NCBI GenBank assembly: GCA_963786935.1
Contig: CAWBAN010000001.1
Coordinates: 1,345,566-1,409,565 of the forward strand
Source of the DNA: an uncultured bacterium
Lineage (GTDB): Bacteria > Krumholzibacteriota > Krumholzibacteriia > Krumholzibacteriales > Krumholzibacteriaceae
Length of the DNA: 64,000 nt
Reading direction: 5' to 3'
The notes below the pieces were generated by a model. That model worked only from the letters and a program-made list of their open reading frames with translations, did not search any database and had not been told where the DNA came from. Position numbers and translations under genes: made by a program. Below, piece after piece: positions 121 through 5,700 of the stretch. Positions within the stretch are counted from its first letter, which is position 1, and every line of letters starts with the position of its first letter.

Positions 121-888
121 CTACGGGCGGCGCCGCGGTTTCGAAAACGAGAGCAGCATCGCTTCGGTCGAAGTCTCGCGCGGGCGGGACGACGCGGGAG
201 CGCCTGCGCTCTCCGTGCGGCTCTTCTTCTCGACCGCGCTTCTCACGAGACCCCAGAGAGGAACGTCGCGGGAGATCCAGAGCCGGCTGCGCTCCTCCTC
301 GACCCGCCGCGCCGCCGTTCCGCCGAGATCCACGGTCTTCGTTTCGTTCCGCCAATACTCGGCCCCCTCGCACGCGAACGTCCCGGCCGGCACGGAGACG
401 CGCGCGGAGCCGAGCGGAGCGCGCGCGAACCGGTCGCCCGGACGGAGAAAGATCGATTCGATGTCCAGACGATCGAGCTCCTGCGCCGTCGGCGCACGGA
501 ACGCGCCGGTTCCCTCCTTGACGGCGACGTCGAGCAGGCAGGACCGGACCGCCTCGGGCGACGTCGCGGACATCACGCGCTCCGCGATCCGGAGCCGGAT
601 CGTGACGCTCTCCTTCTTCGAGCGCGGATAGGGGGACGTGACGACCTCGAGACGGAACGCCCCTCCCTTCCGGTCGAGAACGCGGAGCTCGACGTAGGAC
701 GAGTCGGCGGCGCCGAACGATTTCGAAACGACGAGATAGGAAACGCGGGCTCCCGGCTCGATGGAAAGGGCTTCGAGCGACATTCCCGGAACGAGAAAAT
801 CGACGCCGGCGGCGCGGGCGGCGGACGGCGCGAGCGCGGCGGCGGCCGCGACGACGATCGAAACGACGATATGCCGTATGCGGCTCAT
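121..888 (-). CDS. hypothetical secreted protein (N-terminal signal peptide MSRIRHIVVSIVVAAAAALAPSAARAAG); C-terminal ~40 aa look low-complexity, end uncertain
   Basis: Internal ATG at 886-888 of ORF 121..1239 is followed by a classical signal peptide; no recognisable catalytic motif. Confidence 0.45.
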   Translation of the reverse strand: MSRIRHIVVSIVVAAAAALAPSAARAAGVDFLVPGMSLEALSIEPGARVSYLVVSKSFGAADSSYVELRVLDRKGGAFRLEVVTSPYPRSKKESVTIRLRIAERVMSATSPEAVRSCLLDVAVKEGTGAFRAPTAQELDRLDIESIFLRPGDRFARAPLGSARVSVPAGTFACEGAEYWRNETKTVDLGGTAARRVEEERSRLWISRDVPLWGLVRSAVEKKSRTESAGAPASSRPRETSTEAMLLSFSKPRRRP

Positions 889-2300
889 AGGCCGTCCGCG
901 CGTCCGCAGTGAGGAACGCGGCTCCAGTACAGCTGATAATCGAAATCGGGGCTCCATTTCGACGTATGACACGTTCTGCACGACTGGCGCGCCGCGGACG
1001 CATAGGAGCCGTCCCGGGAATGCGCCGTGCCGGGACCGTGGCACGACTCGCACTGAACGCCGAGAAGATACGGAGCGCCCTCCTTCTCCGCGGCCGGATC
1101 GTATCCGCCCGGCCTCCGGTACCCGGTCGTGTGGCATGCGAGGCATTCCGGATTGGATTCCTGCCCGCGCTGGCGCAGCGTTTCGAAAGCGCGGAAATGC
1201 CTGCCGCCGACGAATCGGGGCATGAGATCGGCGTGGCATCGCCTGCAGATGTCCATGCCGAGATACCGATCGACGATCCTGCCCGTCGAGGCGTCGCGCG
1301 AGAGCGCCCGGCTGACCTGCAGCTCCCGCTGCTTCATCCGCTCCTCGGAACGGTACGCGGCGAGATCCCGCGCCGCGGCGGAATCGTCCGGCACGCTCGC
1401 GTCGAGACGGATCAGCGCGCTCTCCATGACTGCGGGGCCCTTCCCCCCGACGCCGGCGATGGTGACGAGCCCGAGATTCCTCCCGCGCTCCCCCGAGAAG
1501 AACACGGGAACGCCGCCGGGCTCGGACGCCGCCGACAGCGTATCGACGCAGCTCTCGCGCTCCCGTTCCCCCTCGCCGCCGTGCCCCCGGATGACGACGT
1601 CGATTCCCTCGAGCGACGGGAGAATCTCATGCAGCTTCTCCCGCCGCATATGGGCGAGCAGCACGACACAGTCGCACTGCCGGCGAAGCGCCGCGAGCGC
1701 CTCCCGCCCCTCGAGCGCCGGGTCGCGGACCTCGACGCCGTCGATATCGCGCGGCGCCTCGCCGAGGAGCGCCATGACGCCTACCGTGGCCCCGCCGACG
1801 CGCCTGATGACGAACGGCGGAAACATGCGCGCGCCGTTTTCGTAGAGATTCGCGCAGACGATCGGAAGCCCCGCCTCCGCGTGCGATTTGAGCGCGCGGG
1901 TTCCGTAGTTCAGATCCCGCTCGCCGACGGCCGCGGCGCCGAAGCCCGCGTCGATCATCGTGCGGACGAGAAACCGGGTCCGGTACATCTCGATGATGCC
2001 CGTTTCCCCAGAATAATCCCCCGCCGAGAGCAGGAGAAGCTGTGGATCGAGATTCCGGCGCTCCTTGATCGCGGTGGCCCGCCGGGCCACCCCGCCCGTG
2101 GCGTGGTCCCCTCAGCCGGCGGGAACGATCCAGCCCCGCTCGTCCCCGGCGAAAAGAATCGTCAGCGACGACTCCTCGCGGCAACCCGCGGCGAGCGCGA
2201 CGACGGCGGCCAGAACGAACAACATGATTCGCTTCATGGTTGAACTATAAATGGAAAGGGCAAAGAAAGCGAGCTTCCTTTGCCCCGGATCATTAGCCAT
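885..2300 (-). CDS. lipoprotein with 5'-nucleotidase/calcineurin-like metallophosphoesterase domain fused to C-terminal tetraheme cytochrome c domain; interrupted by in-frame TGA at 2112-2114
   Basis: ORFs 2112..2300 and 885..2090 are in the same frame, separated only by one TGA. The N-terminal piece carries the lipobox signal MKRIMLFVLAAVVALAAGC and SLTILFAGD. The body has GDYSGETG...GERDLNYG...IVCANLYENG...VVIRGHGGEG, a 5'-NT-like pattern with a degenerate GNHE. The C-terminus has four CxxCH motifs (CRRCH, CLACH, CESCHGPG..H, CRTCH), typical of paired-CXXCH multiheme cytochromes. Confidence 0.55.
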
Positions 2301-2756: not shown

Positions 2757-5700
2757 CTAGTAGCCGCTGTAGGAGGACTGGATTCCGCGCGTCCCGCGCT
2801 CGTACTTGATCTCGGGATGCGCTTTGATCCTGATTTCGAAGTAGTACCGCCAATCGCTCCCGGTTCTCTCGTGGACGAAGCTCGCGCTCCAGCAATGGAG
2901 GTCGCGCTCGAGCTGATACCGCTGCTGCGTGAAATCGCGCTCCTCGATGTTGTAATAGCCGTTGACGGTGAGCTTCCACCCGCGGGAGAGCTGCGCGGCC
3001 CCCGTGTACCTGAGATTGCTCTGCATCGTCCGCGGCGAGTTCTCGCTCCACGCCTCGCTCAGGTTGTATCCGACGCTGAGCGACCAGCCCGGCGATCCGC
3101 TCCCGCCGGACGGAATGAGGTCGGGGGACGGCGGCGGCGCGCCGCTCTTTTCGCCCTCGAGGGACGGCGCGATCCGCTCCCGCTCGGGCAACGCCCACAC
3201 GGCCGGGTAGGTCAGGGAGCCCCGCAGGGAGAAGTTGAAATTCATGCCGAAATCGTGCGACAGCATCTTGCCGCGGTACGGCGAGTACCTGCTGTTGAGG
3301 TTGAACGACATTAGATTGCCGATACGGAGCTGCGACCTGCTCGAGATATCCGAGAACGCCGTGCTCGCGGGGAGCTCGGGATTGTAGCTTCCGGAGACGT
3401 ACCAGGCGAGGACGTCGCTCGATTTCGTCTCTTTCCCGCCTCTCTTGAGCTTGAGATCGATCGAGTTGTCGACTCCCCACTGAAACGACTGGGACCGCCG
3501 CTGGTCATCGCTCAACTTCGGCGAGATGCCGTAGCGCACGCTCGGCGTCAACGTGTGGCGGAGGCCGACGAGCGACCCGATGCGCGGGTAGAAGGTCCCG
3601 TAGACCTTCGTGCTCATATCGGCGCCGAGGTTCATGGTGAACTCGTTCGTTTCCCGGGGACGGCTGGCCGGGCCGTAGAAGCTTTCGTAACCTTCGTTGA
3701 TCTTGTACGTGAGCAGCTTCGCGTACGCCCAGCCCATGTTGACGCTCGGATTGATCCCGAGGAATCCGAGGCGCACCTGCCGGTTGAATCCCATGCCGTA
3801 GCCGCTCGTCACCCGCGAGTAGCTGCGCGCCATGCTCTCCTCGCTCGTCACGGTCGCCGCTACCTTCGGCGTGAACAACACGCTCCCGAGGCCGCGCTCC
3901 CAGAGGCCCTGCGTCCCCGCCGCGTGCCGCTCGCCGAACCAGAGGGACCGCTGGGGAAAATTGAGCGAGAACGACGGCAGCGTCATCGAGACGCGGGGCT
4001 CCGTCGGGATGGTCACGTTGAGCTTCTGGTCGCGGGTCCCCGAGAGGCTGAGACTCGTCCCGTTCCAGCTTTTCCGGTAGCTGGCGGTCGAGTACACGCG
4101 CCGGTCGATGAACCGCGTGAGATCCTGCGCCTGGTCGACCGCCGATTGGGCCTGATCGCTGCTCACGAACTTGAGGTTGCTGGTGAGGCTCGCCGACGGC
4201 GAGAAGGTCTGATTGTGTCTCGACTCGAATATCCATTCGTTCGACGTGACGTACTTGCTCTGCGTGCCGCCGAACTGCCGCACGTAATCGAGCCGCGCCT
4301 CCCCGTCCAGCATATAGCGGATCGCGTAGTTGTTCACGAGGTGGAACCGGAGGCTCCGCCGTTCGTTGAAATCCCCCGTCAGGAGGAAGTCGGTGTATTC
4401 GTTCGTCGCCCAGTAGTAGCCGAGGCCCTGGACGAACCTCCCCTCGCGGCTCCCGAATCCGATGTCGACGTTCGGCTTGAGGAACCCCGAGGCGCGCGTG
4501 TGGCGGAGCGAGTTGACCATGAAGGGGAGGAAGAAGACCGGCATCTCCCCGATGTGGAGAAAGATCGGCCCCGTCACGATCTTGTCGTCGATGTACACCT
4601 TCATCCTGTTCGCGTGGAACGAGTAATGGGGATTGGTGTAATCGCACGTCGTGTAGGTCGAGTTGTAGACCTTGAGCACGTCCTCGCCGACCTTGAATAT
4701 GTGCTCCCCCTGATAGTATCCCTCGCCGTACTTCGTCGAGCCTTCGACGATCACGCCCCCCTCGGAATCGAGATCGTATCCCATGTCGTCGCCGAACATC
4801 TTCTGATCCTTCTCCTCGAGCACGGGAGCCCCCGTCGCCTCGAGCAGGTTGAGGCGCGAGTTGTAGTCGATCCGCTTGGCCGTCAGGCTCGAGTTCTGGT
4901 ACTTGAGATAGGCGCGGCCGTTGAGGAGAACGTTCTCGGTCGGCGCGAAGTACTCGATCCGGTCGGCGTTGTACTGGACGCGCTGGTTCGACTTCTCGAA
5001 GCTCTTGTACGTGAGCGAGCTGTCGATGGAGGCGGCGAGGCTGTCGATCGTCTCCTGCCGCGAGAGGTTGACGTACTTGTAGAGGCCGGTGGACGCCCCC
5101 GATATCTTGATGTAATCGAGCTCCCCCTCACGGAAGACGAAGAACATCCGGTCTCCGGTCGAGAAGTTGTTCGAGACCTTGGTCGAATCCCCCTCGATCG
5201 GGTAGTACATCGACTTCGCGTTCTTCTGGATGAGGACGGAATCGACGCGCTCGTTCGAGAGGTAGATGGCGATCGAGTCCCCCTCGATCCACGAGTCCTC
5301 CGTCCAGGGAGAACCCGGCCTCGGGGCGTCGGCGAGGCGGCCGGTTTCGGGGAGCACGATGCGCTCCACCTCGTCCTCGTTGTACCAGAGCAGCATCCGC
5401 TTGCCGCTCATGGACGAGGAGCCGTTCCGCGCCCGCGGATTGCCAGTGAGCTCCGCACGCTGCTCCGCGTCCCGGATGACGGCGGAATCGCAGCTCGCCC
5501 TCGTCTCTCCCTTCGCGATCTGCACGTCCCCCTCGGCGACGCCGATCTTCCGGTCGACGTCGAAGCGCATGATACGGCTCGTGACCGTCCCCCGCTCCTC
5601 CGATTTCAGGTCGAAGGTGAGAATGGGGCGATCGTCAACGACCGCTTCCTTCCCGATCCGGTCGAAGCGGGCGTGCCTGCCCGCGAGCGAATAGTCGTCG

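Follow-up and report, generated by a model that had tools for sequence, protein, structure and literature searches.

A predicted exported selenoprotein that joins a degenerate 5'-nucleotidase-like fold to a tetrahaem cytochrome domain in a Krumholzibacteriia bacterium

Background

Whether a reading frame cut by an internal TGA represents a damaged gene, a pair of adjacent genes or a single gene with a recoded codon is the question raised by a locus close to the left end of a 64,000-nucleotide stretch of contig CAWBAN010000001.1 (assembly GCA_963786935.1) from an uncultured Krumholzibacteriia bacterium; this whole stretch is referred to as the window. On its minus strand, an open reading frame (ORF) for a signal peptide (2300/2237..2115) and an ORF of 401 amino acids (2090..885) lie in the same frame. 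The original prediction, made from the sequence alone, had described them as a lipoprotein signal and the body of one protein parted only by the TGA at 2112-2114, and had considered a substitution error, a pseudogene lesion or a recoding event such as selenocysteine (Sec) as the cause. Our analysis indicates with high confidence that the locus is a single selenoprotein gene in which this TGA is read as Sec (Sec42). Of the options that had been considered, selenocysteine was borne out, and an error or a pseudogene lesion was not, as the TGA is conserved, homologues have cysteine in its place and a covarying hairpin of the selenocysteine insertion sequence (SECIS) type follows it.

A single reading frame with a conserved in-frame TGA

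Between ATG 2237 and the terminal TGA (887..885), the TGA at 2114..2112 is the sole interruption of the frame and there is no frameshift, in agreement with the relationship proposed for the signal piece and the body. ATG 2237 is the likely start codon (MKRIMLFVLAAVVALAAGC); the equivalent Met is used by the orthologues, and the upstream ATG 2300 is not conserved. The encoded sequence starts with MKRIMLFVLAAVVALAAG-C, continues with TILFAGDERGWIVPAG-(TGA)-GDHATGGVARRATAI and ends in a C-terminal region with four CxxCH motifs. The predicted product is a single exported lipoprotein of about 47 kDa. The segment MKRIMLFVLAAVVALAAG-C matches the lipobox pattern by eye only; its Cys is kept in 7/7 loci that share the P-A-G-U loop around Sec42 (PAGU loci), and the deepest member of this clade, L087, which has P-V-G-U, contains no lipobox Cys.

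DNA of relatives was collected with an alignment-based scan of species-representative genomes, which provided 80 further loci (L numbers); single-protein queries gave one locus among metagenome contigs and none among genome contigs, the alignment query being the productive one. The 80 loci span Krumholzibacteriota, Eisenbacteria, Latescibacterota, Acidobacteriota, Myxococcota, Desulfobacterota, Nitrospirota, Rokubacteria and Gammaproteobacteria. Two taxonomic labels among the relatives, Bathyarchaeia for the protein record P0027 and Patescibacteria for L005, are probably binning errors. The homologous codon is TGA at 62 sites and TGC or TGT in nine loci, most of which are gammaproteobacterial, and Cys-type full-length proteins retrieved by protein search show P-C-G-C exactly at the Sec position. 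TGA is kept in every orthologue examined, from 88% down to 44% identity. The DNA of L001 (67% identity), L002 (48%; a Krumholzibacteriota metagenome-assembled genome (MAG), GCA_003369535.1) and L087 (44%) has a layout like that of the window, with a signal peptide followed in frame by (F)TGD..G..P-[A/V]-G-TGA-G-[DE]-...GGVARRA, and the signal peptide and first strand encoded 5' of the TGA are conserved in frame among the relatives. The locus thus shows what is expected of a bacterial selenoprotein gene, namely an in-frame UGA that is aligned with Cys of homologues and conserved sequence on both flanks. Orthologues with a sense codon at this position had been regarded as potential evidence against the original prediction; the distant homologues that do have a sense codon there carry Cys, as is usual for genuine Sec sites, and this test has therefore to be inverted.

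An origin of the TGA in faulty sequencing or assembly, or in the decay of a dead gene, is extremely improbable. The sequence does come from a single MAG, and public gene callers treat the TGA as a stop, but the same codon is found in every orthologue examined and at 62 sites across many phyla, the sequence on either side stays conserved and in frame, a Logan assembly of run ERR10755939, made independently, is identical around the TGA, and the hairpin described below covaries. The public records suggest another reading. About 70 orthologue proteins (P0001-P0071, 88% to 44% identity) are all called with about 401 amino acids, starting just after the Sec codon, and are named 'multiheme c-type cytochrome', 'hypothetical protein' or not at all. 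Together with a separate 55-amino-acid ORF in L087 (2812-2979), these calls would fit two genes, a short one for the signal peptide and a second one for a cytochrome of 401 amino acids with its own start at GTG 2090. To this we assign a probability close to nil, as such a product would have no signal peptide, although c-type haem attachment needs export, and would be devoid of strand 1 and motif I of its fold. Furthermore, the Cys-type homologues and orthologues are single genes of about 430-480 amino acids, the former being continuous and alignable across the junction, and the curated NCBIfam hidden Markov model (HMM) NF041198, 'UshA-like (seleno)protein' (UshA_like_PCGU), spans both parts. 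This model is the best HMM match of the window protein (E 1.5e-67, in two stretches over both domains). The public calls miss the signal peptide and Sec because this rescuing model scores the gene below its threshold.

A covarying hairpin downstream of the TGA

A search for a SECIS-like hairpin downstream of the TGA, as suggested with the original prediction, was successful: a hairpin is located at 2091..2073, and its 8-bp stem begins 20 nt after the UGA, with a UGA-to-loop spacing of 28 nt and an energy of -15.5 kcal/mol. It agrees with all four published criteria for bacterial SECIS elements (PMC13188914). When 62 sequences with the UGA are aligned, the eight stem pairs are formed in 79% of cells, and both sides are changed in 68 cells, compared with 32 +/- 4 in shuffled alignments (0/500 reach 68) and with 17-28 cells when the partner column is slid. 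The stem changes include GUGG/CCAC, CUCG/CGAG, GUUG/CGAC and CUAG/CUAG. Since the stem lies within codons for G-[LV]-A-R-R-A-[TS], and loci with a Cys codon encode a similar peptide there, the latter were used as a control; the median hairpin energy is -12.8 kcal/mol for Sec loci versus -4.2 kcal/mol for Cys loci (Mann-Whitney p=0.001). An acidobacterial subgroup (L037, L041, L053, L058, L064, L068; ~4971-5024 in most) keeps the TGA but encodes GGLYKKAT and lacks the hairpin at its usual place; its SECIS must be located elsewhere or be of another type.

The UGA is conserved where homologues have Cys and is followed by a covarying hairpin, and we therefore interpret it as a selenocysteine codon. 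Based on established knowledge of bacterial Sec incorporation, decoding would be carried out by SelB and tRNA-Sec. Several observations weigh against this interpretation. Among the genes that the original prediction had suggested to search for, selA, selB and selD went undetected: tblastn with the E. coli SelA, SelB and SelD proteins gave no matches in the 64-kb window or the fetched loci. ARAGORN detected no tRNA gene in the 64-kb window, and no tRNA-Sec lies in the fetched loci; the Sec machinery of the organism is thus presumed. No Rfam family matches the hairpin, either at the gathering threshold or at E <= 10. The window protein, with U written as C, reaches 228.3 bits with NF041198, which is below the curated cutoff of 275, and in place of the P-C-G-U/P-C-G-C motif of that family it has P-A-G-U, in which the first Cys is absent. 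In the literature, we found no functional or structural study of the NF041198 family.

The score of the window protein is comparable with that of its orthologue L002 (217.5 bits) and of the PCGU/PCGC members L008, L075 and L072 (225-250 bits), which are likewise below the cutoff; the Krumholzibacteriota PCGU member L012 just passes with 275.7 bits, and Rokubacteria and deltaproteobacterial members (L034, L054, L079) pass with 325-356 bits. The missing Sec machinery among window and fetched loci would fit readthrough of the UGA without Sec, either by near-cognate insertion of Trp or Cys or by an alternative genetic code. We consider this highly improbable: TGA is the commonest ordinary stop codon in the window and also terminates the selenoprotein gene itself, which excludes a genetic code that reads UGA as sense, the hairpin is specific for loci that contain the UGA, the alternation of Cys and UGA is the classical signature of Sec, and the family is curated as a selenoprotein. 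A screen of the window for more genes with an in-frame TGA, based on the G+C content of third codon positions (GC3) and of little discriminating power at 67% GC, revealed ordinary gene junctions only.

A nucleotidase-like domain without a conserved metal site

The proposed architecture holds: a putative lipoprotein signal is followed by a nucleotidase-like calcineurin fold and a four-haem domain of the c554 type. In a phmmer comparison with PDB sequences, residues 42-297 align over about 250 residues with CD73 and snake-venom 5'-nucleotidase (E 3e-9), which places the N-terminal domain in the calcineurin-like fold. GGVARRAT of the window protein falls on GGVARLFT of human CD73, and GERD falls on GNHE residue for residue, as expected from the earlier suggestion that GERD is a degenerate GNHE. 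The AlphaFold2 model of a Cys-type homologue (P0116; mean predicted local distance difference test score 80, and >90 in the N-terminal domain) matches 5'-nucleotidase structures (3ivd, CD73) with E ~1e-20, and its P-C-G-C loop is located between strand 1 and the GG-initiated helix 1, i.e. it is the motif I loop of the fold. Of the Pfam families that had been recommended for the two halves, Cytochrome_C554 was recovered and Paired_CXXCH_1 was borderline; the N-terminal half showed neither a Metallophos match at E <= 1 nor a 5_nucleotid_C match; the region of the latter is taken up by the cytochrome domain. The NCBIfam UshA, nucleotidase and SoxB models match far below their own cutoffs.

The dimetal and catalytic motifs of the fold, D-x-H, G-D, G-N-H-E, H and G-H, are represented in the window protein by D-E-R, G-D, G-E-R-D, H and G-H. 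In an alignment of 68 family sequences, P39, G41, U/C42, G48, G49 and G73 are invariant in the N-terminal domain, N130 is present in 99% and Cys40 in 90% (61/68). The His of D-x-H is never His in these 68 members, K or R being commonest; in the GNHE counterpart the Asn position is mostly Glu, the position of the catalytic His varies, and position 108 (D108) holds Asp or Glu in every case; H196 and H219 are found in only ~60-65%. The suggestion that the domain might bind nucleotides or phosphate instead of hydrolysing them finds no support here, as 5_nucleotid_C is absent and the only functional residues invariant throughout the family are those of the P-x-G-U loop.

In summary, the N-terminal domain shares with the 5'-nucleotidases UshA and CD73 (COG0737) the alpha-beta-beta-alpha metallophosphatase fold, the GGVARR helix, the GD motif and an (S/C)-A-N motif, but differs from them by D-E-R in place of D-x-H, GERD in place of GNHE, a Sec-bearing loop after motif I and a tetrahaem domain instead of the substrate-binding domain 5_nucleotid_C.

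A tetrahaem domain of the cytochrome c554 type

The C-terminal domain belongs to Pfam Cytochrome_C554 (PF13435; 59.2 bits, cutoff 20.8); the score for Paired_CXXCH_1 is just below threshold (20.4 versus 20.6). By phmmer it aligns with cytochrome c554 (1bvb, E 4e-7) and also with a multihaem 'uncharacterized protein' (6i5b). Among the readthrough relatives, 68/71 carry four CxxCH motifs, including all 68 full-length ones. The spacing of these motifs is similar to that of cytochrome c554 of Nitrosomonas europaea (1bvb/1ft5; C-x-x-CH-x-G-[YF] ... G-V-x-CE-x-CHGPG), and as in c554 only three distal His residues are conserved for four haems; these non-motif His residues are H347 and H406 (100%) and H443 (82%). 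One haem should thus be five-coordinate or ligated from elsewhere. In c554 it is haem II that is five-coordinate. Unlike c554, which is a free electron carrier, the tetrahaem domain of the window protein is fused to a catalytic-looking domain.

A divergent branch of a catalogued family

The fusion is less unusual than had been assumed: the original prediction took the combination of domains for an uncommon architecture, yet both the two-domain architecture and the selenoprotein nature of such proteins are already catalogued, their listing as a selenoprotein family dating back to 2008. 'COG0737, UshA-like' with a CxU motif was among the major selenoprotein families of the Global Ocean Sampling (GOS) metagenomes (PMC2398784), and the 'UshA-like protein' (NF041198, CxU) is included in two reviews (PMC9312934, PMC13188914). 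We found no mention of the PCGU motif in the literature and nothing on selenocysteine in Krumholzibacteriota. The same arrangement recurs in 68 related full-length genes and is therefore not a chance feature.

The window gene is a divergent, sub-threshold branch of this family. With NF041198 it has in common the fusion of an UshA-like N-terminal domain to a C-terminal domain with four CxxCH motifs, Sec or Cys at the same loop position, the hairpin in the stretch encoding GG-x-A-R-R, and export. The window clade differs by P-A-G-U (P-V-G-U in its deepest member), by a cysteine at position 230 and by the putative lipoprotein signal, and it retains more of the old metal ligands than core members do. 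There is also a similarity of the N-terminal strand and loop to 'UshA-like (seleno)protein family 2' (NF049981; 29.8 bits), but this is far under the cutoff of 140, and the model of NF049981 has a CxxU motif and 262 positions without a cytochrome domain. In L052, two tandem paralogues (3921, 4977) are present, both with an in-frame TGA, and the first encodes P-C-A-U instead of P-C-G-U.

A clade-specific exchange of cysteines

Position 40 is occupied by Ala in seven loci and by Val in L087. All of the seven Ala40 sequences and L087 have Cys230, as does every one of the 31 orthologue proteins inspected, to identities as low as 44%, compared with 0/61 of the Cys40 (PCG[U/C]) members. Loss of Cys40 and gain of Cys230 occur in one clade and therefore probably reflect a single evolutionary event, without independent replication. 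As far as can be judged from sequence, this pattern is what would be expected if the partner cysteine of Sec had moved, and Cys230 is thus a candidate partner. In typical members, the Cys of C-G-U would form and resolve a selenenyl-sulfide with Sec; in the window clade, Cys230 would take over this role of Cys40. The clade represents a natural experiment, in which the partner Cys of C-x-U was removed and another Cys gained, that bears on whether a selenenyl-sulfide is part of the mechanism.

Proposed function

The signal peptide and the c-type haem motifs mark the protein as exported; in it, a fold of the nucleotidase type, whose metal site is dismantled and whose Sec loop is invariant, is joined to four haems. 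Since the family has not kept the dimetal ligands, we regard a selenium-based redox enzyme of the periplasm, connected through the four haems, as the most probable function. The protein is probably not a phosphoesterase, and we see an about even chance that it acts as a periplasmic oxidoreductase with the selenol of Sec42 as its reactive centre. The four haems would then pass single electrons between the Sec42 centre and the periplasmic electron-transfer pool.

Alternatively, the N-terminal domain might still function as a metallophosphoesterase, a nucleotidase or a hydrolase like SoxB, with Sec and haems as accessories. This domain shares its fold and the GGVARR helix with 5'-nucleotidases, PCGU members show weak matches to the SoxB model, and the window clade keeps D32, D74, E106, H196 and H219, which speaks against a purely selenium-based chemistry; one metal site could survive in this clade, and the chemistry could be metal-based. 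A hydrolase of this kind is nevertheless very unlikely. In the window protein the His of motif I and the catalytic His are both replaced by Arg and the metal-binding Asn by Glu, and none of these positions is conserved across the family; variation at the ligand positions contrasts with an invariant Sec loop, and the substrate-binding C-terminal domain is missing. With regard to SoxB thiosulfohydrolase (TIGR04486), a periplasmic enzyme of inorganic sulfur chemistry from the same superfamily, HMM similarity is weak, though stronger in PCGU members, and the window protein reaches 28 bits (cutoff 550). The SoxB enzyme retains a dinuclear Mn site and is not known to contain haems or Sec.

For the selenium-based redox enzyme that we favour, inorganic sulfur or selenium species might be the substrate, a rather unlikely guess that is made by analogy, since no other enzyme of non-nucleotide chemistry is as close as SoxB. 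It is also conceivable, albeit doubtful, that Sec42 acts as an axial ligand of, or reaction partner at, the open haem (haem II of c554 by alignment), forming a His/selenocysteine centre; this idea is based on the presence of only three conserved distal His residues for four haems and on Cys40 and Sec42 being the only conserved ligand-capable residues of the N-terminal domain. If true, a recycled nucleotidase scaffold would carry a His/selenocysteine haem centre, whose partner Cys would have moved from position 40 to 230 in the window clade. With the gene correctly annotated, the Krumholzibacteriota gain a selenoprotein and, as this implies, the selenocysteine trait. The NF041198 family as a whole represents an exported selenium enzyme widespread in sediment anaerobes.

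Genomic organization and neighbouring genes

The features of the locus are compiled in Table 1. The gene for the secreted 255-amino-acid protein immediately follows the selenoprotein gene in every PAGU locus and in four PCGU loci (L008, L020, L026, L028), and its product has no Pfam match. The order lptD-hup-selenoprotein gene is shared by 26 loci of Krumholzibacteriota and neighbouring lineages, including PAGU and many PCGU loci, which indicates that the window gene is a positional orthologue of the PCGU genes and not an unrelated fusion. This order looks like lineage synteny and not like a functional link: when the neighbourhoods of 68 loci were clustered, the recurring genes (lptD, hup, 255-amino-acid protein gene) proved to be syntenic within lineages only, and none accompanies the selenoprotein gene across phyla.

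Table 1. Predicted features at the selenoprotein locus (window positions).
Feature	Position	Strand	Remarks and basis
Complete selenoprotein gene (predicted)	885..2237	minus	450 codons including Sec42, plus own stop TGA 887..885; single frame
Putative signal peptide with lipobox L-A-A-G-C	2181..2237	minus	Cys19 at 2183..2181; read from sequence
UGA, predicted Sec42 in loop P39-A40-G41-U42	2112..2114	minus	TGA/Cys alternation; aligns with second Cys of PCGC
Hairpin of bacterial SECIS type	2073..2091	minus	Stem GGUGGCCC/GGGCCACC, loop GGC 2083..2081; covariation, energy
5'-nucleotidase (UshA/CD73)-like domain, degenerate dimetal site	1338..2168	minus	phmmer, NCBIfam, AlphaFold2 model of homologue
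G105-E106-R107-D108, GNHE counterpart	1914..1925	minus	Aligned with CD73 GNHE
Cys230 (RESCVDT), clade-specific invariant Cys	1548..1550	minus	Candidate replacement for lost Cys40
Cytochrome c554-like tetrahaem domain	888..1265	minus	Pfam PF13435; CxxCH motifs; phmmer to 1bvb
CxxCH motifs	CRRCH 1247..1233; CLACH 1145..1131; CESCH 1052..1038; CRTCH 980..966	minus	
Gene for secreted protein of 255 amino acids	121..888	minus	Translationally coupled; its ATG overlaps the selenoprotein stop (ATGA)
HU-family DNA-binding protein	2302-2595	minus	Immediately upstream
LptD, 1094 amino acids	2757-6041	minus	Upstream

The next downstream gene, just past the left end of the window (L084, 6860-9241), encodes a protein of 793 amino acids with weak matches to FlgD_ig and Por_Secre_tail, the latter being a type IX secretion sorting domain, and is conserved in PAGU loci. 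An ORF of 444 amino acids on the plus strand (909-2243), antisense to the selenoprotein gene, was rejected as a shadow ORF typical of DNA with 67% GC (GC3 0.69); long antisense ORFs of this kind are present at several other places in the window.

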